The translations under genes and the position numbers were made by a program. A stretch of DNA of 32,000 nucleotides from Nitrososphaeraceae archaeon (GTDB lineage Archaea; Thermoproteota; Nitrososphaeria; Nitrososphaerales; Nitrososphaeraceae), in NCBI GenBank assembly GCA_036555705.1, contig DATBKT010000014.1, positions 2,040-34,039 on the forward strand, given 5' to 3'. The notes beneath the pieces are model-generated. The model searched no databases and was not told the DNA's origin. It saw only the letters and a program-made list of their open reading frames with translations. Below, piece by piece: positions 7,110 through 32,000 of this stretch (within the stretch, counting starts at the first letter, position 1; every line of letters begins with the position of its first letter).

Positions 7110-7463
7110 ATGTCCAAAGCTAATCTTCGCCACAGACTTGCTAGTGCTTATGAGATCACACTCAGCGTTAAAGGCAGAAAGTCAGGCAAGGATATTGCTA
7201 GACCGGTATGGTTTTCGTACGAAGGTAACACTCTATATTTGCTACCTGTACAGGGTTCTGACACTAATTGGTACAAGAACCTGCTAGCCAATCCATCACT
7301 AAAGATTTCTATTGATGACGTTGAAACACTCACAAGAGGCAGAATACTAAAAGAGATTCACATGGTCGATGAAATAGTCAGAAAATTCAGATCTAAGTAT
7401 GGTGAAGGAGATATGAAGAAGTATTATACAAAATTTGATGTAGCCGTTGAAGTAGTACTCTGA
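7110..7463 (+). CDS. Deazaflavin (F420)-dependent nitroreductase / PNPOx-like split-barrel family protein
   Basis: 117 aa. The pattern GRKSGKDIARPVWFSYEGNTLYLLPVQGSDTNWYKNLLANPSLKISI is typical of the DUF385/Ddn-like family (GRKSG..r..PV...., dWYrNLlAnP.v.v). Confidence 0.7.
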   Translation: MSKANLRHRLASAYEITLSVKGRKSGKDIARPVWFSYEGNTLYLLPVQGSDTNWYKNLLANPSLKISIDDVETLTRGRILKEIHMVDEIVRKFRSKYGEGDMKKYYTKFDVAVEVVL

Positions 7464-7496
7464 AATGTTAGGTTCTATTCCATAAATGATTAGGTT

Positions 7497-8942
7497 TTAT
7501 TGATCGATAGGTGCTATTCTATAGATTGTCCCTTGGTCAAATGTTAGAACGTATAGATAGCCATCATAAGGATTTACTTTAAGATCAGTAATTCCGCCAA
7601 AGCCTTTTCCAAATTTTATTTGATCTAGATGATCGGTTCTATTTGCTACTAAATCTCTTAACGGACCAGATGGTAGCATTAGTCCTGTTCTTTGTGAATT
7701 TAGCTTAAAGTGATAAATATTTCCATTCAGATCATCTGCAACAAACATATCATTTTCATACTGACTTCCCAACTTCTTAGAATTCATGAATGTAATCCCA
7801 GTCGGAACTACTTTGTTAAACCATGTAAATTGTGGTGGATGATATTTGCCTCTTCCATTAAAATCTGCCAAGTTGTTCGGATGAAGAGGAGCAATATCAT
7901 ATTTCTCAGTCTGATCGTTACCATAGCCATGCAGCCAAATGCCATCGATCTTATTATATCCACTGTTAAAGCCTGGATTGACAAGGTTAATTTCATCGCC
8001 AAATGGTAGACCAATTTGTGTATCCCATAGAATTTTTGTTATTGGATCAAAAGCAATTCCAAAGCTATTCCAAATTCCATATGAGTAATAGAGGTCTGAT
8101 GGATAGGTATTTCCCAATATGCCAGGTGTTACTGGCTTACCATCCTGGTGAACTCGAAGAATTCCACTAGTTCCGTCAGGTTCACTCCCATTCTGAATAT
8201 TTTGTGCCTTAGTATTATGGCCATTAATGCCAACATCACCTATTGTAAGATACACATTGTCGTCAGGTCCAACAATCACCTTGCCACCATTTCCAATTGC
8301 ACCGGGAATTGCTGGAAGGTCTAACAACAGTTGTGGGTTCACTAACCTGTTGTCCACCAGTTTATACTTGTATAGTCGGTTACCTGCTGGTATTTTTCCC
8401 TCAGTAATATCATCACTAGTATGTGTCTTAGCTTGGGTATAATATAGAAAAATGGATGTAGTAGTGTTCCGACTCCCATAGCTACTAGAGGAGGTTGTGG
8501 TAGGTTGAAAAGTGGGAGAGACGGCTATGCCTAATAATCCCCTATGACCATAGGTTGCAACACTTACATCGAGCAAGGGTTGCTTTAGCACTGTACCATT
8601 CATTACTCTTCTTACCGTGCCAGCATCTTTTTCCGTGACCAGGAAATCGTTAGGGCCCAAAAAAGTCATACTGGTTGGATATCTTAATCCTCCGGATACT
8701 ACTTTTGCCATAAGATGTGGATCAATAATAATTGGGCCTCCTGGAAATGGTATCCCAACATCATGATATTTTGTGGCCAGGGCTTTTACGAGATGATAGT
8801 CGTTATTTTGACTAGGATATAGAATTTTGTTGGTTACAGAAATAGCACCGGTGCTCAATACTGTGAATATCAAAACTAAACTGACCAATAGTAATAACGA
8901 GAGTGATAATAAAGATCCAAAGAAACGTATCAAAAGAATCAT
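7497..8942 (-). CDS. Membrane-anchored soluble-glucose/sorbosone-dehydrogenase-like (PQQ-type) beta-propeller protein
   Basis: 481 aa with an N-terminal TM anchor (FFGSLLSLSLLLLVSLVLIFTVL). GSDH-family blocks are present: FLVTEKDAGTVRRV, GHRGLLGIAVSP, GGKVIVGPDDNVYLTIGDVG, SGILRVHQDGKP, YGIWNSFGIAFDP, DEINLVNPGFNSGYN. Confidence 0.75.
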   Translation of the reverse strand: MILLIRFFGSLLSLSLLLLVSLVLIFTVLSTGAISVTNKILYPSQNNDYHLVKALATKYHDVGIPFPGGPIIIDPHLMAKVVSGGLRYPTSMTFLGPNDFLVTEKDAGTVRRVMNGTVLKQPLLDVSVATYGHRGLLGIAVSPTFQPTTTSSSSYGSRNTTTSIFLYYTQAKTHTSDDITEGKIPAGNRLYKYKLVDNRLVNPQLLLDLPAIPGAIGNGGKVIVGPDDNVYLTIGDVGINGHNTKAQNIQNGSEPDGTSGILRVHQDGKPVTPGILGNTYPSDLYYSYGIWNSFGIAFDPITKILWDTQIGLPFGDEINLVNPGFNSGYNKIDGIWLHGYGNDQTEKYDIAPLHPNNLADFNGRGKYHPPQFTWFNKVVPTGITFMNSKKLGSQYENDMFVADDLNGNIYHFKLNSQRTGLMLPSGPLRDLVANRTDHLDQIKFGKGFGGITDLKVNPYDGYLYVLTFDQGTIYRIAPIDQ

Positions 8943-23208: not shown

Positions 23209-23768
23209 AATCATAATGCTTTCTAGGGAACCATTGAAATTTATATGAATTGCAAGAACACACGAACCCAAATTTTCAGTATCTTAAAATAAAATGGCCA
23301 CTAAGATTATTCCCAAGAATAGGACTAGATAATGAACAGGGTTGATTGTACCGTTACTAAATTATGAAATATATTAGATCTTCTCCCTATAAATCTAATC
23401 AAAAGCAAAACCTTAGTATGGTTTCTGCTCTACCTCAGTTAAGTCCTGGCTATTAATTGGGTATATTTCGTTCAGAGCAGATTCTACTGGTATCATCGCT
23501 GAAAGAAAAACTATCACCTAAATTATGAGATAATATTTTATCGTCTGTCAGAATAAATACCCAAAACCGACCACTGCGCGCTCTATTCATGATAAGACTC
23601 GAGCTAGACGTGCAATTTTATCATCTGATAGAAAAAATGTAGATTACTAAAGGATCTGAATTTATATCTTAAAAATATACCTGTTTTTATCAAGAATGAA
23701 GATTCTATGACAATCTCGCAGATATAATTTGCACAATACAAATAACCAGTTATAATTTGTAAGATATA

Positions 23769-24077
23769 GTGCCAAGTACCACTTTCGATAAAGGCATACT
23801 AGGAGAATTAAGTCCATTTAGAAAAGACAACAAGAGATCTAATCCAGAAAAACAGTTCAAACTTGACGAGGAAAAGAAAGGCAAAATTTTTGACACAATT
23901 ACAACAGTCACTTGTAATAATTGTAATGTGACAGTTCCGGTCATTCATTGGGACAAGCACAAAACTGAAGTGCACATGAAGGGTATTTCTTTTTTCCGTC
24001 TGCTTAAAGAAATAGATACTGCAGACGATGGTCTAGATTTAAAAATGAGTATAAGGTATATGTTTAAGAAACTTTAA
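23769..24077 (+). CDS. Small basic protein with a single C2H2-type zinc-finger motif
   Basis: 102-aa ORF with a GTG start. CNNCNVTVPVIHWDKHKTEVH gives C-x2-C-x11-H-x4-H. The N-terminal half is Lys/Arg-rich. This is the only sizeable ORF in an AT-rich gap. Confidence 0.4.
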   Translation: MPSTTFDKGILGELSPFRKDNKRSNPEKQFKLDEEKKGKIFDTITTVTCNNCNVTVPVIHWDKHKTEVHMKGISFFRLLKEIDTADDGLDLKMSIRYMFKKL

Positions 24078-25480
24078 TCTGCTCAAAAACCAATGAGATG
24101 CTTTGTTGCATGATTCAGAAAAATCATTATAAGATAACGACTTGAGCAAATCTCAAGAATGGACCATAATGAATCCCTCTCTTTTGACCGGTGGTTTCAA
24201 ATTTAGTTGACTGATATTAGATTCATGAAACAAAGTACAACAACATTAAACTGTGCATAGTATTCATGCGTGAGTTAAGGTGCCGAATATGTATTACGAC
24301 GTATCAGAATGTAAAAAGTTATGATTCCGAGTAATCGATTTTAGTTGTCATTTTATGACAAATATTGAAACACCTTCATGCTCATCCCCTTATTTCACTC
24401 CTGAACGATTTGTTCAGAAACATGTAAAGAGAGACTCTTCGTCAAGAATTAGATAAATTAAAGAAAATGACTATTCATTATCATGATGACATTATAAAAA
24501 CAAAAATATGATAAAAATGCTCGATTTTTTGCATAACATCAATATTCCTTGCAGTCAATATTGGAGCGAGAAGCTCCCTTAAAACTAAGTATCCTAAAAG
24601 ACAAAAATTGGCTGATACAGTTATTGTTTTCTATCATGATCTCTTACCTCCAGATAGACAGCACAATCATACAATAATATACAAACAGCTAAGCATACGT
24701 CGTCGGCTACTTAACTATAATGAATAATATCCTAACGATCAATGCCTAGGCACACTCTATATACATAACGAAGAACGAACACAAAAATTTCATTCCGTGA
24801 CCGCTGCAGACAGTACATGTATATCTGGGAATCCCTATATTATGAGCGCATTAAACACTAGACATATGGACAATGTATTTATCGATCCCATGATTTATTT
24901 TAGACGCTATTCTGGTTGCAACAGATGAGAATAAGATGAAAAGTTGAAGTTGTGGATACAGCTAATCCTGACTCTTTTGGTATTTGTTTATTCTTTAAAT
25001 TTTGTCATCTATTATATTCTGAATTGCTTGACCTTTAAAGATTAGAGCCACCACCATTGTATGACCAAATATGCGCCATATAGTAGCAATAGACATCAAA
25101 CAAGCCCATTCTTATGCATGCTAAGTTGGTATAATAATTAAATTGCAATCTGGACTAAATTAAGCTGAAGTCTATAGTATTTTGCTTTTATCAAATTCCG
25201 ATGTTTTGTTACATATATAAAAGTAATCCTGACGCTATTTTAGAGAATGTTCATCTTTGCAATATTATGCCTTTCTAGATCTATTCCCCATCATGATTAG
25301 GGAAGCAAAGCTTCTGATTTATTTAGCACTAAATTGATATGATTTTTCTTTGATCATTCTGCGATATATTTTTCTCTCTTCAACTTATTTGTTCCAGCTC
25401 GTTTTATTGATGTGGATTGTTAAGAGAAAAATCATGTAAATCTGACTTACATTGCTACTGGAAAGTATTACCGCTGGAAA

Positions 25481-25684
25481 CTATTGTCTCGGAGTCGCCG
25501 TTTTCCCAAACATCGCCGTAACCAAGCCGCCTGCAAATCCAATGAGGCCGGTTGCAAATGGTAATACGTCCTTGACTGCACTGGCCATCGGACTGGTAAC
25601 GCCATTTGAGGTTGCTTGAAAGAATAAACCTAGCACCAAGATGCCTGTACTTGCAACGATTGTCCATTTTAGAATCTCACTCAT
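25481..25684 (-). CDS. Small two-helix membrane protein
   Basis: 67 aa with two hydrophobic helices (WTIVASTGILVLGLFF and LPFATGLIGFAGGLVTAMF). It is locally more GC-rich than its flanks. The overlapping ORF 25455..25667 looks like a frame shadow. Confidence 0.45.
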   Translation of the reverse strand: MSEILKWTIVASTGILVLGLFFQATSNGVTSPMASAVKDVLPFATGLIGFAGGLVTAMFGKTATPRQ

Positions 25685-25689
25685 GTACT

Positions 25690-25818
25690 TTACTGGTTGG
25701 AGGAAAGGCTATCTGCTTTTAAATCCTCTAACGATTCTTCGATCTTATTTAGATCCGACGAACTAATTGATGTCGTTGGAGGAATGATCGATTTAGCCGA
25801 TATGGACGGATCAGACAT
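25690..25818 (-). CDS. Possible 42-aa micro-ORF immediately upstream of the small membrane protein gene
   Basis: My own translation is MSDPSISAKSIIPPTTSISSSDLNKIEESLEDLKADSLSSNQ. The stop lies 5 nt before the ATG at 25684 on the same strand. It is below the ORF-track cutoff and the support is weak. Confidence 0.2.
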   Translation of the reverse strand: MSDPSISAKSIIPPTTSISSSDLNKIEESLEDLKADSLSSNQ

Positions 25819-26271
25819 CGTTTAATACTATATCATCCAGGTTACTTATGAGATACGATTGAATACATTCTAATTAAAAGCAGGTATTTTTTATGTGCAT
25901 GTGAATCTAAGGGATTATTATTAGTTTTATATCTATACGATATTATATAGGAATTATACATAAGACAAGCGTTAAGCACAATATAATTGGCAAGACTAGC
26001 AAATTGAGATTCATTAGGCACTAAAAATCAGATATGGACTTGCTATATTATAAAATGTCGTGGCAAAGGATATTTAATTTTACTTACATATGATGTCTTA
26101 ATTGGAGGTACGTGCTCAATATATTGCAACTAAATAGTTGAATAGAGATTAAAAGAAATAAGGTAAAAAGACTATCGTTAGAAAAACATACATTCACTCT
26201 TAAATAAATATCTATCTAAAGGCATTACGAATGATAAATGTTAATCTTAATCTTACGAAAAATACTTTTCA

Positions 26272-27510
26272 TTACAAATAATATTGCTTATGAATATAGC
26301 ACCACTTCCAACATGTGGCTGATAATGCAGCTATCGCCACATGACCTGTTCGTTTAAAGTGTTCAAACGCATGATCTATCTTTGAACTTGCACAGGATAT
26401 ACGATTACATACTAAGCATTTGCGTAAAGATTTTGTTTCTCCGCATTCTTCACAAACAGAATTGTCAATATTAACATTGTTTAGTTGAACATTCGAAAAA
26501 TGCTCGCATGTTAGACGCATTGGTCTTTTAGGTAATTCTGTAGATATGTGATAAACTCCGTTACTACACTTTTCGCAATGTATTTCTGCAACATTCATCT
26601 TGTCTTCATAGATGAACCAATTCGTTTGTATGGGTATAGCATCCTCAAACCCACACTCATTGCAAACACCATAAAGAACTGTGAATGTAGGATCGCCTAT
26701 ATTCAATCGTCGTTTGAGATGCCATACTTCAGGAGGATATTGCTCAAATATTCTATTCTCTAGTTCTGATTTTATGTACGCTAACTGTGAATTTCGAGTC
26801 TGTTCATCTAAACTATAGAATAGTCGAGTCGAGATGTTGTGTAATTTTCTATTTAGTTCTTCATTAACGGAATATTTGGTATTTGGAATTGGAATTATCT
26901 CAATTGCTTTTAACACTGTTCTTATATTAGGGTCATTCTGCAAAATTGATTCTACTAGATCAAAGACAACATCTAATAATCCCTCTTGCTTGTATTGCTC
27001 ATAAAATTTTGATAGAAATTTTGCCTGATGAGAATTACATATCTGCAAGGTAGATTGAATAAGATCATATAGTGTAATGGTATGTTTACGATGTCCAGTA
27101 TCATTCCGTTCAAGTAAGAGTGAAATAAAGTAGCCATCTCCAGCAGTTAAATATAAAGGGATTTGTGCATTAACTTTCGTTGCTCTCACACTTCCTGAGG
27201 ACAATAATCCAAGTTGTATTAGATTATTAATTTTTGCCTCAAGACGATCTCTTATATTTGCAAAGCGTTTAATCTTGGGTATGTTCTTTTCAGATGAACG
27301 CATTTTATCAAGACCATATCTTTTAATCAATTCATCATTGTTTTCTAAAAACCAATAACCCACATCTGTGAGTTTAAATTCCATTTTTCCTGTTTTGATC
27401 GAATATTTCAACAAGTCCTGATAAAACAAAGCATCTTTTGTAAAAGAATTATTGTCGTCTTTTTCAAATATTGATTGAATAGATGGTATTTTCGAACCCG
27501 TTTTTCCCAT
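26272..27510 (-). CDS. Element-encoded protein with a C-terminal ZnF-UBP-type zinc finger preceded by a zinc ribbon; N-terminal region possibly winged-helix
   Basis: 412 aa. The last 60 aa are CEECGETKSLRKCLVCNRISCASSKIDHAFEHFKRTGHVAIAALSATCWKWCYIHKQYYL. This gives C-x2-C-x8-C-x2-C-x4-C-x6-H-x3-H-x5-H-x9-C-x3-C-x2-H, the spacing of ZnF-UBP domains (compare HDAC6 CQDCG..[21 protein letters not shown]..SGHPL....WCYYC). Upstream is a ribbon CNEC-x25-CEKC. Confidence 0.75.
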   Translation of the reverse strand: MGKTGSKIPSIQSIFEKDDNNSFTKDALFYQDLLKYSIKTGKMEFKLTDVGYWFLENNDELIKRYGLDKMRSSEKNIPKIKRFANIRDRLEAKINNLIQLGLLSSGSVRATKVNAQIPLYLTAGDGYFISLLLERNDTGHRKHTITLYDLIQSTLQICNSHQAKFLSKFYEQYKQEGLLDVVFDLVESILQNDPNIRTVLKAIEIIPIPNTKYSVNEELNRKLHNISTRLFYSLDEQTRNSQLAYIKSELENRIFEQYPPEVWHLKRRLNIGDPTFTVLYGVCNECGFEDAIPIQTNWFIYEDKMNVAEIHCEKCSNGVYHISTELPKRPMRLTCEHFSNVQLNNVNIDNSVCEECGETKSLRKCLVCNRISCASSKIDHAFEHFKRTGHVAIAALSATCWKWCYIHKQYYL

Positions 27511-27569
27511 ATAGGGTAGATACTAATACATGACTTTCATATAAGTCTATTTTCACTATACATAGTAGA

Positions 27570-27752
27570 ATGATACTATATAGCAAGAATTCACACATAG
27601 AAGTTAGAAAAGTGCAAGCACTCACAGGGGAAAGGAGTCTGACACTCGTTTTACCCAAGGTATTTGCAACGGAACTCGGGATAACAAAGGGAACGATATT
27701 GAAGTGCAAAATCGATGAAGGGCATTTGATAGTAGAGAAAGCTGAACTTTAA
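27570..27752 (+). CDS. AbrB/SpoVT (MazE-like swapped-hairpin) DNA-binding protein
   Basis: SLTLVLPKVFATELGITKGTILKCKIDEGHLIVEK fits the SpoVT-AbrB pattern (..vtIPk.....lgi..Gd.v.....dg.iii.k). An alternative GTG start at 27612 would give a 46-aa single-domain protein. Confidence 0.7.
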   Translation: MILYSKNSHIEVRKVQALTGERSLTLVLPKVFATELGITKGTILKCKIDEGHLIVEKAEL

Positions 27753-27935
27753 AAGAAAAAAGAAAGAAAAATGAGTCCAGTTAATAATATTCACGCTCAT
27801 TCTGATAAGTCTTTGCACTATCTGAATTCTAATAAATTTAGGTATAGAACTATGTCTAATCATCATAAGTCTATCGATATAATAATCGATTTATCACAGA
27901 CTTGTTTTCCAGGGTACGTAAGAAAGTGATAAGAG

Positions 27936-30488
27936 ATGTCGTCAGCGTATAGAGATATTGATATCAGTAAAGAGCTATTGCAGTGTGGTGTTACTAAACT
28001 AGGCAGAGAAAATACAAAAATCTCTATGGAATTTCATTTCCCAGCTCATGATGGTCAAGAAATTACCAGAATGGTCATCTTTAATTTAAAACAAGATGGA
28101 TTTTTGGCTACTGTGGAAGAATTTGACAGGCAAGCAAGAGGGGGATGGGGTCATAATAGAAGATTACCTTTGCCTTCAGACATAATTGAGAAAACTAAAA
28201 TAGTTTTTGCAAACAGTACGTATTATCCTAGGGCATTTGAGTATTATGAGCACGACATCGTAAATGAGGAACAACTACGACAAGAGCAGAGTGTTGTTTC
28301 ATTATCAGAACCGACAGAAGGTGTTCAGATGGTAGCAGCAAACGAGGAGGAGCAACGTAAAAAGGAACAGGCATACGCCTCGGCAATATCAGATCCCGAC
28401 TATGATGATGTAAAAAGGAACGAGCGCCTGACACCAATATCAGTAAGCAATGCTATCAGAAAAGATCCAGGCCGGTATTGCGTATATGGTATAATTGATA
28501 CTGTGAGGAAACCGTTCAAATTAATGACAGAGGTTGGTTTCATATGTAGAGATCAAAAATGCACAAGTTACGGTAATCCAAAGTGGCAGATTTTAGACAC
28601 ACCGATATTTTCACTTGACGATATGCCAATTGCATTCAAAGCCGAAAGAGTTGAAAACGGTAAAGTCAAGAAAAACGGACAGCAAAGGTATCTAGAACTT
28701 TTAAGATGTCCATACTGCCAACATACTAGATCAGTAATTCCAAGCAACCATGGACACTTTGATAATGCTAAAATAATTGAATTAAAAAAGTTGGACAGAA
28801 TCACCAAAGTTTCAACCATGATCGCTAATAACACTCTGAACATGGAACGTCTAACTGTTCTGGTAATGGATACTCATACATGGAGTGTCGGATTTGGTGA
28901 GGAGGTCGAAATCATTGGTGATTTGCATATAGTTGGTTCAATGATGTCATCATCTCGTTTTGGTATCGGTTCCAGAAGTGGTGGCGGCTCATCTGATAGT
29001 GGTAAAGCGTATCCAATATTTTATGCTGATCGAATAAATTATACAAAGCGCCACAGGGAGATCGATACTGAAGACTACAATCAACTGATCCGACTGGATG
29101 CTTTTAACAAGTTCGCGTCATATCCAAAACTAATAGAAAGACTGACTTCTATGATGTCTCCCCAAATATATGGGCACGACGATGTTAAACTGGGATTATT
29201 ATTACTTGCAGCAGGGGGTGCACCTATTCAGAAAGATAATCCCAACGTTAGATACTGGATCAATGCTGGACTGTTTGGAGACAAGGGCACCGGAAAGACA
29301 ACTATGGCAGAAGATGCTACCAAACTGATACTAGGAAGCCAGATAGTCTCTGGTCAGCATTCTACGGGTAAAGGAATTGTAGCAGTTGCTGAGAGAGAAA
29401 GTGGGAATGGAACAGGCGCTCTACTACGAGCAGGTGCAGCCACGTTAGCAAATGATGCTATTTGTTTCATAGATGAGTTTGGGACTATGAATTACGAAGA
29501 CCAGAATCAATTCCTGAGTCTTATGGAAAAAGGCTATTTAAATTTTAACAAGCTAGGTATACGACAGAGGATAGATGCAAAGACCAGTTTCATTGTGACT
29601 TCTAATCCAATAGGGGGAGTATGGCAGAATCCAGGCAAGATATCTAAAGGTGATATACCACTAAAGGCTCAGATAATTGACAGGATAGACTTGTTCTTTG
29701 TGTTCAGAGAGCCAAAGACCGATGAGGAGATAGACGCCTTTAAGGAACACAGAAAGAAATTAAGAAGGAAGCACTTTAAGCCGTATTCAATAAACAAGTA
29801 TACTGGCGAGAGAAAGTATCTCGAACAGGATTTTCCATTTCTTAGATATTATCTATACTATATTCGCACACAGAGCGGATTCCGACAGATTGAATTCGAA
29901 GAATCATATCTGGTGGATAGATTAGCAGATCTCTGGAGTGAAATAAAGAAAGCAAGTCCAGACCAGATGACTAGTAGAGGATTCGAATCCATTTACAGAA
30001 TTGCTGAAGCCTTTGCCAGGTTAATGTGTAAGGACGTCATAGATTTAGAAGTTGTAGAATGGACTATCAAATTTGTAATAGAGATGTATCGTAGGTATGG
30101 TGCACAAATAGCTGAAACACCAGATTACCGTACTATTACATATCTTGAAATTGCTAAGATAGTAAAAGCTCATGCCAAAAATATATTCTGGACAGATGAA
30201 CAGGATAACCAACTAGAAGATTTAACGGAGATTGCATTCACTGCAGCTTGTGAAGAGGCTGCATCCAAGAATGAAGTGGTTCGAAATTACTTGGGTGACG
30301 ACTTCAGAAGTAGCTCGAATAAAGCTGCAAGGCATTTGAGAGATATGTTTAGGGAGGAAAGAAGATATGAACATGGTAGAATAAAAGTTGTATCAAGTAA
30401 TAAACATGCAGAGTTCAAGCTAAGATGGGTTCCTATAAATGAAGAGCATACCGATAAGAATAACGAGTGTGACGGTGTGACCGTGTGA
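27936..30488 (+). CDS. mcm: MCM-family (AAA+) replicative helicase of a mobile element
   Basis: 850 aa. N-terminal OB/zinc region with CRDQKC ... CPYCQH. MCM box MSPQIYGHDDVKLGLLLLAAGG. Walker A GLFGDKGTGKTT. Walker B AICFIDEFGTM. Sensor-1 SFIVTSNP. Arg-finger block IIDRIDLFFVF (consensus LLSRFDLIF). C-terminal helical/wH-like tail. Confidence 0.9.
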   Translation: MSSAYRDIDISKELLQCGVTKLGRENTKISMEFHFPAHDGQEITRMVIFNLKQDGFLATVEEFDRQARGGWGHNRRLPLPSDIIEKTKIVFANSTYYPRAFEYYEHDIVNEEQLRQEQSVVSLSEPTEGVQMVAANEEEQRKKEQAYASAISDPDYDDVKRNERLTPISVSNAIRKDPGRYCVYGIIDTVRKPFKLMTEVGFICRDQKCTSYGNPKWQILDTPIFSLDDMPIAFKAERVENGKVKKNGQQRYLELLRCPYCQHTRSVIPSNHGHFDNAKIIELKKLDRITKVSTMIANNTLNMERLTVLVMDTHTWSVGFGEEVEIIGDLHIVGSMMSSSRFGIGSRSGGGSSDSGKAYPIFYADRINYTKRHREIDTEDYNQLIRLDAFNKFASYPKLIERLTSMMSPQIYGHDDVKLGLLLLAAGGAPIQKDNPNVRYWINAGLFGDKGTGKTTMAEDATKLILGSQIVSGQHSTGKGIVAVAERESGNGTGALLRAGAATLANDAICFIDEFGTMNYEDQNQFLSLMEKGYLNFNKLGIRQRIDAKTSFIVTSNPIGGVWQNPGKISKGDIPLKAQIIDRIDLFFVFREPKTDEEIDAFKEHRKKLRRKHFKPYSINKYTGERKYLEQDFPFLRYYLYYIRTQSGFRQIEFEESYLVDRLADLWSEIKKASPDQMTSRGFESIYRIAEAFARLMCKDVIDLEVVEWTIKFVIEMYRRYGAQIAETPDYRTITYLEIAKIVKAHAKNIFWTDEQDNQLEDLTEIAFTAACEEAASKNEVVRNYLGDDFRSSSNKAARHLRDMFREERRYEHGRIKVVSSNKHAEFKLRWVPINEEHTDKNNECDGVTV

Positions 30489-30611
30489 CTATGGTATTTG
30501 TTGATTATGAAGCAAAAAATAGTTCTGATTCTCAAGAGGGAAAGGGCAATAAACAAATATTTTCTGCTATAATAAGAAATGAACCCGGTCACACCGTCAC
30601 ACCGGTCACAC
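30467..30611. repeat. Inverted arrays of a GC-rich heptamer flanking an AT-rich ~100-bp spacer; candidate replication origin or iterons of the element
   Basis: GTGTGAC occurs at 30467, 30475 and 30483 (8-nt period). Its exact reverse complement GTCACAC occurs at 30588, 30596 and 30605. The longest exact inverted match is GACGGTGTGACC (30471-30482) with GGTCACACCGTC (30588-30599). The arrays straddle the MCM stop and PrimPol start. Confidence 0.6.
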
Positions 30612-31663
30612 CTATTTCTCTAGAACACTTCTGTATCAAAGGTCTAGACTTCGTCTTGAATCATTTCCGGAGTTCACTCTGGCCCAGAACTATATCTACC
30701 AAAGCCACGCAAGGAAAGCAGGTTATTGTAAATAGTAGATATCAAGCACTTACATACTTTAAAGCCGCTGGGTATCTGGATTGTAGGATATGTGCCTACC
30801 ATTATTGGAGACCATCAATAATATCGGACTTTGCAGATATCAAAAACCCAATAGTTCCTGACATAATAATGATTGATCTGGATACACACAATTTTAACTA
30901 CGAGCACATAGCAATCAAAGCCGCATTACGAAAGATACTTAAAAGAATCAAAAATCTTTTGAATCTAACTACACCTACAGTTATTTGGTCAGGAAATGGC
31001 TATCATATTTACATTCCAATAAATGTTCCAATAGTATTGGAAGATATAAAGGAGTTCATCAATATCGAACATGTCTCAACTAAATTCTTGAGATTTGCAG
31101 AATGGTATCTATCGTCTGGAATGTCTGACTCTGCACATAATAGCACTGTCTCATTGAATAACTGCATGTTAAGAATTCCTTATTCTTATAACTCTAAGAA
31201 CAACGCTCAAGTTAGGATAATCAAGAAGTGGGACGGCAATAGGTCTAATATCAGCCTGCTTGTTGGTAGTTTCTGTGCATATCTTACAGATAAGAGATTG
31301 AAGGAAGAAGATAGAAGACAACAACTAAAGTATAATTCCAGGAATTTTAGGGAAATGAGTAATAAAGGTGATATTCACTGGATAGAAACACTACTTCTAA
31401 CTCCAATCCATGATTATAGGAAATATGCAATTTGGCGCATCCTGGCACCATATCTGATTAATGTAAAAAGATTGTCTTACGAACAGGCATATAGTATTAT
31501 CAAGCAATGGCTGAAACAATGTAGCAATTTAAGAAGGCTTGATTTTCATCCCGATGTAAGGATAAGAGAAGGTTTGACTGGAGCGTCTCGTGGATACCCT
31601 CCTGTAAGTTATCAGAAATTAAGGGATGAAAATATTATGCTATATGAGACACTGTATACATAA
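30485..31663 (+). CDS. Archaeo-eukaryotic primase superfamily primase-polymerase (PrimPol) with PriCT-like C-terminal domain
   Basis: 392 aa. AEP motif I is IIMIDLDTH (DxD). Motif II is VIWSGNGYHIYIPI (sGxGxH). The motif III region is SDSAHNSTVSLNNCMLRIPYSYNSK. The C-terminal YRKYAIWRILAPYLINVKRLSYEQAYSIIKQWLKQC resembles PriCT. Start is GTG 30485, overlapping the MCM stop by 4 nt, or ATG 30491. Confidence 0.8.
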   Translation: MTMVFVDYEAKNSSDSQEGKGNKQIFSAIIRNEPGHTVTPVTPISLEHFCIKGLDFVLNHFRSSLWPRTISTKATQGKQVIVNSRYQALTYFKAAGYLDCRICAYHYWRPSIISDFADIKNPIVPDIIMIDLDTHNFNYEHIAIKAALRKILKRIKNLLNLTTPTVIWSGNGYHIYIPINVPIVLEDIKEFINIEHVSTKFLRFAEWYLSSGMSDSAHNSTVSLNNCMLRIPYSYNSKNNAQVRIIKKWDGNRSNISLLVGSFCAYLTDKRLKEEDRRQQLKYNSRNFREMSNKGDIHWIETLLLTPIHDYRKYAIWRILAPYLINVKRLSYEQAYSIIKQWLKQCSNLRRLDFHPDVRIREGLTGASRGYPPVSYQKLRDENIMLYETLYT

Positions 31664-31983: not shown

Positions 31984-32000
31984 GTCCTCTCTATCTTTTC

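Follow-up and report, generated by a model that had tools for sequence, protein, structure and literature searches.

A UBP-type zinc finger fused to a putative regulator of an integrated element in Nitrososphaeraceae archaea

We analyzed a 32,000-nucleotide stretch of DNA from a Nitrososphaeraceae archaeon (assembly GCA_036555705.1, contig DATBKT010000014.1; this whole stretch is hereafter called the window) and focused on one gene of an integrated element, located at positions 26272..27510 on the minus strand. The gene, taken from the list of open reading frames (ORFs), encodes a 412-residue protein that joins a winged helix, a helical domain and a zinc ribbon to a UBP-type zinc finger. The N-terminal winged helix-turn-helix (wHTH), which is PadR/MarR-like and presumed to bind DNA, spans residues ~8-123 (27142..27489, minus strand) and was delineated by Foldseek and by an AlphaFold (AF2) model with predicted local distance difference test (pLDDT) values >90. 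It is followed by an all-helical middle domain, defined from the same model and a family alignment (residues 124-270; 26701..27141, minus strand), and by a zinc ribbon with the four cysteines C283, C286, C312 and C315, delimited in a 61-sequence alignment (residues 276-323; 26542..26685, minus strand). A linker, STELPKRPMRL (residues ~324-334; 26509..26541, minus strand), leads into the finger at the C-terminus (residues 335-412; 26275..26508, minus strand). An exact-sequence look-up identified the product as NCBI HEY7569880.1, which carries the automatic name 'UBP-type zinc finger domain-containing protein [Nitrososphaeraceae archaeon]', and a homologue with 83% identity occurs in another Nitrososphaeraceae metagenome-assembled genome. 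Hence, the call of the UBP domain, made in an earlier note from the letters of the window, is already part of the public annotation. Codon comparison with two homologues gave ratios of nonsynonymous to synonymous substitution (dN/dS) of 0.17-0.19 for the whole gene and 0.13-0.17 for the finger; since the latter is this low, the finger is a maintained part of the 412-residue protein, kept by purifying selection (dN/dS about 0.15).

The gene is divergent from the AbrB-MCM-PrimPol operon of the integrated archaeal element, as the earlier note had described and as Pfam matches at 27570-31663 on the plus strand bear out. The operon opens with the gene of a 60-residue AbrB/MazE-like (SpoVT-AbrB) protein (27570..27752, plus strand; Pfam MazE_antitoxin, E=2.5e-5) and continues with those of an 850-residue MCM-type replicative helicase (27936..30488, plus strand; Pfam MCM, E=1.9e-39, together with MCM_lid, and PHROG DNA helicase) and a 392-residue primase-polymerase with a C-terminal PriX domain (30485..31663, plus strand; Pfam PriX, 7.4e-7, a weak LigD_Prim-Pol match, and NCBIfam primase_PriX above the cut-off). 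Cellular genes that would suit a Nitrososphaeraceae host occupy the left two thirds of the window; they encode a multicopper oxidase, a ZIP transporter, CHRD proteins, dehydrogenases and a glycosyltransferase.

The C-terminus of the 412-residue protein is confirmed as a ZnF-UBP-family finger, an identity that rests on sequence profiles and ligand conservation. The Pfam zf-UBP profile (PF02148) scored 30.6 bits over residues 353-410 (E=4.1e-7), which exceeds its gathering score of 22.7, and the Cys/His spacing quoted in the earlier note was correct. When residues 330-412 were compared by phmmer with all PDB sequences, ZnF-UBP domains only were returned at E<=0.013, namely those of USP49 (4e-9, 40 bits), the 'hypothetical protein' 2IDA (4.4e-7, 33 bits), HDAC6 (1.9e-5 to 2e-3), USP33 (1e-3) and USP20 (0.013). 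In the alignments, all 12 zinc-ligand positions of HDAC6 are filled (C335, H337, C353, C356, C365, C368, C373, H380, H384, H390, C404 and H407), the final one by His where HDAC6 has Cys, and all 12 are kept in the three intact homologues, so the conservation of the pattern, a point on which the earlier note had left its proposal dependent, was found. The ligands may be grouped into three zinc sites, C335/H337/C404/H407, C353/C356/C373/H380 and C365/C368/H384/H390, a proposed division on the pattern of the HDAC6 structure. The earlier note had placed the domain in the last 60 residues; it is really about 80 residues long, and the N-terminal pair C335-x-H337, which opens the domain, is present in every ZnF-UBP aligned and is proposed to complete the third zinc site with C404 and H407, had been missed. 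C400, which had been counted as a ligand, varies, being Asn in the homologue P0003 and Gln, Ile or Ser in host relatives. AlphaFold modeled residues 6-330 confidently and the finger at only about pLDDT 50.

The finger belongs to the same Pfam family as the eukaryotic ZnF-UBP domains of HDAC6, USP5, USP16 and USP49 (9yc2), with which it shares the 12 ligand positions and loops of equal length, but it is only 24-36% identical to them, ends its ligand series in His rather than Cys, and stands outside the deubiquitinase or deacetylase context in which they occur. In HDAC6, R1155 has two roles, since with Y1184 it hydrogen-bonds the terminal glycine and with Y1156 it closes over the tail; W1182 stacks on the ligand, and ubiquitin binding is lost in the R1155A/Y1184A mutant; the key tail-guiding Arg is R1155 in HDAC6, R221 in USP5 and R84 in USP16. 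According to a 2026 survey of human ZnF-UBPs, binders are defined by this Arg and up to five aromatic residues, and 6 of the 14 human domains, including those of USP13, 20, 22, 33 and 39, do not bind ubiquitin. In the same survey USP49, the best PDB match of our finger, does not bind the tail peptide, and USP45 binds more weakly, perhaps in part because it has Lys at the position of the Arg. Ungapped HMMER alignments place A374-S375-S376 of the window finger at G1154-R1155-Y1156 of HDAC6, in agreement with the earlier note, which had seen that the Arg-Tyr after the fifth Cys is replaced; moreover, W1143 of HDAC6 corresponds to R363, an Arg invariant in the finger clade. Thus, the pocket aromatics W403, Y405 and Y410 (HDAC6 W1182, Y1184 and Y1189) are kept and the equivalents of W1143 and Y1156 are gone. 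The earlier note had also pointed out that the WCY aromatic pair is kept; however, W-C-Y is invariant or nearly so across all the aligned fingers, USP33 included, and its retention is uninformative because non-binders have it too. Among the matches listed, none of about 98 prokaryotic fingers has Arg-Tyr at the gatekeeper positions, where CDSS is commonest, and neither the window nor the related elements encode a ubiquitin-like protein (Ubl) or a genuine Gly-Gly-ending product. Because the key Arg and two pocket aromatics are absent, the finger is, as judged from its alignment, unlikely to read ubiquitin-type Gly-Gly tails.

The finger had been described as eukaryote-type, a label that does not suit its relatives: among the matches listed, the nearest are stand-alone thaumarchaeal mini-proteins within a large prokaryotic radiation. 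Prokaryotic ZF-UBP radiations are reportedly unrelated to ubiquitin, a view that Burroughs, Iyer and Aravind are said to have put forward in 2011. Metagenome relatives were picked with a degenerate DNA pattern for the H-A-x2-H-F-x2-T-G-H core, which yielded at least 120 loci; 108 of the 120 listed hold a true UBP finger, mostly in ORFs of 85-130 codons on high-GC contigs. The best relatives of the window finger among these matches, in contrast, all lie on low-GC contigs, with L112 (46% identity, 76 bits), L030 (43%, 71 bits) and L056 (41%, 70 bits) as the closest and L116 and L106 also among the top. Identity to the thaumarchaeal mini-proteins is about 41-46% (62-76 bits), compared with 40 bits for USP49. 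Four of the top relatives are named 'UBP-type zinc finger domain-containing protein' on exact look-up and come from Nitrososphaeraceae, Nitrosopumilus, Nitrosopumilaceae and Marine Group I thaumarchaeotes; their clusters count 99-1799 members, some of them on contigs of up to 2 Mb. The mini-proteins (e.g., HZA08274.1 from Nitrososphaeraceae, MCH1519064.1 from Nitrosopumilus sp. and NMJ67453.1 from Marine Group I) are 83-87-residue, single-domain products encoded on chromosome-scale contigs, whereas the window copy is fused to a 334-residue regulator. Common to both are the CEHF start, Ser-Ser after the fifth Cys, the LR[MK]C motif and the ending WKWCY[IV]H..Y followed directly by the stop. Among 87 scored fingers from the matches listed, the ending WKWCY.H..Y-stop, with its last-ligand His, occurs in the low-GC group only, whose four looked-up members are all thaumarchaeal, and elsewhere the last-ligand position is most often Asp. 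The fused finger departs from the host forms by a 4-residue deletion that removes a loop Trp and by a 1-residue deletion (CCDSS to CASS).

Bacterial fingers stand further off. In a survey of 2008, Euryarchaeota and five bacterial groups were already listed as having zf-UBP mini-proteins. By tblastn, seven genes of bacterial megaplasmids or chromids, four of them annotated as UBP-type zinc finger proteins, match the finger at 33-37% identity over at least 90% of the domain. These fingers (e.g., PDB 2IDA and Burkholderia WP_258285519.1) belong to the same family, likewise lack Arg-Tyr and share W-x-W-C-Y, but differ in a last-ligand Asp and longer loops; the two bacterial genes inspected encode 90-residue stand-alone proteins and both adjoin genes of flavin adenine dinucleotide (FAD)-dependent oxidoreductases, and in Burkholderia a VOC gene follows the finger gene. 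No match of the finger was obtained in phages (tblastn), and a motif scan of IMG/VR gave six matches, all due to chance (stop codons, no Cys/His pattern). The host UBP mini-genes sit among housekeeping genes: an inorganic pyrophosphatase gene lies just upstream in L030 and L056 (Nitrosopumilus-type), the gene of an M3 oligopeptidase of ~590 residues just downstream in L056 and L106, with a gene of the same size in L116, and the Nitrososphaeraceae mini-gene of L112 is flanked by a glyoxalase/VOC gene and a cupredoxin gene. Genes for Ubl, E1 or JAB proteins are not among the neighbors of the prokaryotic finger genes inspected. The window finger is a derived fused copy and not itself a member of the stand-alone mini-protein family; since fused fingers are rare and derived whereas the host form occurs widely, capture by the element from the host would be the parsimonious direction. 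A second, unrelated fusion was found on a low-GC contig (0.36), where L115 (881-1609, minus strand) encodes a protein of at least 242 residues whose C-terminal finger is of thaumarchaeal type (Pfam 2.4e-11) and ends WKWCYIHKVYG, and whose N-terminus of ~178 residues has no Pfam match.

The rest of the protein belongs to an older family. Residues 1-345 served as the query of a HMMER search through 1.84 billion representatives, of which 212 matched at E<=1e-3 and 76 at E<=1e-10; nearly all full-length members are 315-380 residues long and have their C-terminus shortly past the second CxxC of the ribbon. Within this core family, the UBP Cys/His pattern is confined to the P0001-P0003 cluster. Given that the rest of the family ends after the ribbon, the finger is a recent C-terminal addition, and the ribbon, as judged from these sequences, is the ancestral C-terminus. 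The zinc ribbon (CNEC...CEKC) noted earlier is real, nearly invariant in the 61-sequence alignment (C283 invariant; C286, C312 and C315 each conserved in at least 90%) and the most conserved feature of the wider family. The alignment further shows an invariant K247 and a nearly invariant E251 in the helical domain; apart from these, the conserved residues are the four ribbon cysteines and a few hydrophobic positions with no catalytic signature, which does not suggest an enzyme. No match for the core family was obtained in Pfam, PDB, PHROG or NCBIfam, and Pfam PadR gave no hit for the window protein and only one, at E=0.009, among 61 family members. The AlphaFold model, built with a 67-sequence alignment (overall pLDDT 81.5), and the Foldseek matches agree with the helical, winged-helix N-terminal half proposed earlier: the N-terminus matched the QsrR-DNA complex (4hqe) with probability 1.00 and a target TM score of 0.56, and further local matches were to PadR (5x11 and 3elk), TFE-alpha and wHTH regulators of archaeal viruses. 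For residues ~8-123 the PadR/MarR-type local matches had probabilities of 0.96-1.00, and searches of PDB and BFVD returned such local wHTH matches only and none to the whole protein; the helical middle domain resembled no known fold. The likeness to QsrR and PadR is thus structural and local, with no Pfam-level match, and the window protein is larger than these regulators, with its additional helical domain, zinc ribbon and finger.

The nearest finger-less relatives (P0007, P0010, P0011, P0014 and P0094) end in [ST]ELPxRP[IM]R[IL] followed by 2-6 variable residues, and the same motif forms the finger linker (residues 324-334) of the window protein. As a candidate ligand of the finger, this tail motif was rejected and kept only at low probability, since the variable residues after ...RP[IM]R[IL] misfit recognition specific to a carboxy-terminus. 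One member, P0077 (656 residues), is of double length with CxxC pairs at 297/327 and 610/642, as if the entire regulator had been duplicated in tandem. L008 carries, at 7294-8848, a decayed version of the finger-bearing gene, in which DNA homology extends over the full length of the gene and the reading frame is broken into pieces of 56, 82 and 228 residues with a frameshift within the finger; the same contig carries a Cas6-like fragment (PF01881). A profile search of metagenome and viral contigs with a 5-sequence family alignment found no related loci.

Across loci, DNA conservation is limited to one block (window 26271 to about 27810), made up of the regulator gene, the AbrB-like gene and the sequence between them, and inter-locus DNA homology stops at the stop codon of the regulator. 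The replication genes past the AbrB-like gene vary: MCM and PrimPol in the window, a 1393-residue family B DNA polymerase (PolB) with a PriX protein in L001 and L005, a 752-residue AAA-like protein in L004, a 545-residue protein with PriX in L006, and an 871-residue Prim-Pol in L150. A divergent AbrB/MazE-like partner accompanies the regulator in nine of ten distinct loci (window, L001, L004, L006, L008, L012, L013, L149 and L150), the exception being L007, in which the family gene stands beside DUF2130 and ParE genes. The survey of homologues and neighborhoods suggested in the earlier note hence revealed a conserved regulator/AbrB-like pairing, but the finger itself proved to be limited to the P0001-P0003 cluster. 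The AbrB-like partners, with the core RRVQALTGERSLTLVLPK.FA.ELGIGKG, are 55-80% identical in eight of nine loci (that of L006 is more distant), whereas the wHTH regulators paired with them are only 25-45% identical; the slowly evolving partner may contact something conserved, and the fast regulator may set specificity. We rejected the possibility that the MazE-like gene is part of a toxin-antitoxin system, since replication genes, and no toxin gene, follow it in every locus. In five of six finger-less elements (L006, L012, L014, L149 and L150) a convergent tyrosine integrase gene is next downstream of the regulator, and L149 is surrounded by cellular genes on a contig of 600 kb. Hence, the usual layout is integrase, regulator, and then the divergent AbrB-like gene with its replication module.

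The regulator and AbrB-like genes are separated by a 59-bp divergent control region (27511..27569), which was examined by four-locus DNA alignment and motif mapping. The alignment revealed an invariant TATA-like box, ATATAAGT (27539-27546), with its center at a distance of about 27 nt from the start codon of the AbrB-like gene and about 32 nt from that of the regulator; for archaeal promoters, this spacing agrees with a single TATA region that serves both genes, each of them nearly leaderless. The space from the box to the AbrB-like ATG holds a 12-bp dyad, ACTATACATAGT (27555-27566), which we regard as a suggestive candidate operator. In L001, L004 and L005 the dyad reads ACCATnnATGGT, so that relative to the ACTATACATAGT of the window both arms have changed and the symmetry has been preserved. 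At L004 2883-2989, the counterpart of window 27511-27569, a 46-bp tandem duplication of TATA-like box and dyad has produced two ATATAAGT boxes and an extra copy of the dyad, and in the distant locus L006 a different perfect palindrome occupies the equivalent place.

Taken together, these observations lead us to favor, with somewhat better than even confidence, the explanation that the protein is a DNA-binding switch regulator of the element that has captured a host UBP finger as a docking or sensing module. The 412-residue protein would be a sequence-specific DNA-binding regulator of the integrated Nitrososphaeraceae element, because its wHTH fold matches PadR and QsrR bound to DNA, because of its divergent pairing with the AbrB-like gene, its position relative to the integrase, its lack of a catalytic signature and the conservation of the TATA-like box and dyad (the latter with a symmetric change in the window), and because only the regulator, the control region and the AbrB-like gene are shared while the replication genes differ. 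Together, the wHTH regulator and the AbrB-like protein would share the 59-bp control region, with its one TATA-like box and dyad operator, and would form a switch that sets the expression of the replication genes. Its layout would resemble that of lambda CI/Cro: as in the lambda immunity region, the order is integrase, regulator and a divergent small DNA-binding protein heading the replication genes, with a short shared control region containing an operator-like dyad. The analogy is one of layout only, as there is no homology to CI or Cro, the promoter is of the archaeal TATA type, the partner has an AbrB fold, and the switch function is deduced from the arrangement. The fast evolution of the regulator beside its slow AbrB-like partner is reminiscent of a determinant of immunity or specificity. 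A single small clade would then have acquired a C-terminal finger on its regulator, copied from a stand-alone UBP mini-protein of the host whose gene is frequent in ammonia-oxidizing archaea, and the finger would dock the regulator to the partner or signal of that mini-protein, coupling the element switch to host physiology. Regulator role, direction of capture and docking or sensing function are all inferred; a Gly-Gly tail reader is not part of this explanation, since the finger lacks the Arg-Tyr gatekeepers and one Trp of the pocket.

Several points weigh against our explanation. The finger-bearing clade, unlike its finger-less relatives, has no adjacent integrase. The wHTH call depends on a structure prediction and on Foldseek matches that are local and have weak E-values for the query as a whole, the model is of low confidence in the finger, and the geometry of the pocket was judged from the alignment alone, where R363 could in principle stand in for the lost Arg. 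The dyad, unique in the window, is not significant by count (expected 0.27; at least one in 26 of 100 shuffles) and could belong to the AbrB-like protein. Moreover, the finger was placed by pairwise matches and signatures, and its true nearest relative may lie outside the matches listed.

Other explanations differ mainly in the role they assign to the finger. The idea, already contained in the earlier note, that it binds the free Gly-Gly C-terminus of a host Ubl of the SAMP, Urm1, ThiS or MoaD type, and that the element thereby reads a Ubl mark, has in our view only a slight chance of being correct. Archaea possess Gly-Gly-ended Ubls, the domain family is the right one, W403, Y405 and Y410 are kept, and R363, invariant in the clade, might supply a guanidinium group; however, Ser-Ser takes the place of the key Arg and the Tyr gatekeeper, the W1143 equivalent is missing, human fingers that lack the pocket do not bind ubiquitin, even the Lys of USP45 goes along with weaker binding, and the WCY is shared with non-binders. 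The sampled prokaryotic fingers, among the matches listed, also lack Arg-Tyr, their genes adjoin those of pyrophosphatase, M3 peptidase, VOC proteins and FAD oxidoreductases rather than Ubl, E1 or JAB genes, and no Ubl or genuine Gly-Gly-ending product is encoded in the elements. A rather slim chance is left to a Rosetta-stone interpretation of the fusion, by which the host UBP mini-protein would normally interact with the switch regulators of elements or with their partner, which could be a free protein C-terminus arising from proteolysis or stress; if so, thaumarchaeal elements would tie their replication switch to an undescribed host pathway sensing peptides or C-termini. We consider it very improbable that the fused finger is a decoy that mimics the host mini-protein, titrates its partner and disturbs a host pathway: mobile elements commonly capture host domains as mimics, and identity to the host proteins is about 41-46% with the end motifs kept, but a decoy would not need fusion to a DNA-binding regulator, and the two loop deletions argue for an altered rather than an identical specificity.

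Two further possibilities each have, in our estimation, a small but real chance. By one of them, the finger would be a zinc or redox sensor, in which oxidation or metal stress frees zinc, alters the regulator and induces the element. The 12 Cys/His ligands within about 80 residues would suit such a role, as would the FAD-dependent oxidoreductase genes next to bacterial stand-alone fingers (two loci), the VOC gene (one locus) and the position of the Nitrososphaeraceae host gene between glyoxalase/VOC and cupredoxin genes; induction triggered by stress is, moreover, the usual logic of integrated elements, and Burroughs, Iyer and Aravind reportedly linked bacterial ZF-UBP to cyclic-nucleotide-dependent redox signaling in 2011. 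Still, the neighborhood signal is thin and varies with lineage, the Nitrosopumilus-type loci having pyrophosphatase and M3 peptidase genes instead, and structural zinc sites are usually not redox switches. By the other, the protein would be a replication initiator or origin-binding factor whose finger recruits the replisome or a host component. The family genes adjoin replication genes of whatever type, winged helices are typical of initiators, Foldseek also touched ORC/Cdc6, and there could be room for an origin in the 3 kb of gene-poor DNA downstream (23.2-26.3 kb). However, ATPase, nuclease and Rep motifs are absent, the few conserved residues are non-catalytic, and no iterons were found around the gene, which instead has an integrase on one side and, on the other, a small divergent regulator with which it shares a promoter and an operator-like dyad; in L007, in addition, the family member adjoins DUF2130 and ParE genes and not replication genes.

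Under the explanation that we favor, a switch regulator with a captured host finger, the locus, part of an element in a soil ammonia-oxidizing archaeon, is a modest case of domain capture and not a eukaryote-like ubiquitin reader, and it should not be followed up as ubiquitin biology. Nevertheless, the architecture that combines an element regulator with a host-type UBP finger, and likewise the regulator/AbrB cassette, appear to be undescribed; a published survey of thaumarchaeal integrated elements mentions neither UBP nor ubiquitin in its text or in the supplementary tables examined. The large, unannotated wHTH/zinc-ribbon family and the AbrB-like protein likely form a control switch beside interchangeable replication modules, in elements of Nitrososphaeraceae-like archaea, whose biology is almost unexplored. 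The fused finger also provides the first functional context found for thousands of prokaryotic UBP mini-proteins of obscure role. Thus, the case offers a handle both on the function of these mini-proteins and on the control of thaumarchaeal integrated elements, useful, if not very surprising, for specialists in archaeal mobile elements or treble-clef domains.

Some observations concern the extent and the diversity of the elements. Between the host glycosyltransferase gene and the regulator gene lies a gene-poor stretch of 3 kb (window 23210-26270), probably the junction of element and host, with a 102-residue ORF bearing a CNNCN...H...H motif (23769-24077, plus strand) and a 67-residue membrane-like ORF (25481-25684, minus strand); tblastn detected no integrase remnant in this stretch (23.2-26.3 kb). 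Identical copies of the element are present on longer contigs (L019-L022). Positions 1-5510 of L019 continue the element and encode a 96-residue acidic protein, a 121-residue protein, a Vsr/DUF559-like endonuclease (326 residues), a PD-(D/E)XK nuclease (283 residues) and a 428-residue protein without a match, and about 5.4 kb past position 32000 there is an integrase-like fragment (L019 54-176) that matches the L012 integrase with E=6e-7. The 1393-residue family B DNA polymerase of L001 (5530-9711, minus strand) has its polymerase domain only in the last ~400 residues, with a weak AAA-like match near residue 350 and an otherwise unexplained N-terminal region of ~1000 residues. Elements of the PolB type (L001/L002) and of the MCM type (L019/L022), which have the same regulator cassette, co-occur in samples 3300036835 and 3300037153, and this co-occurrence suggests that modules are exchanged within one community.

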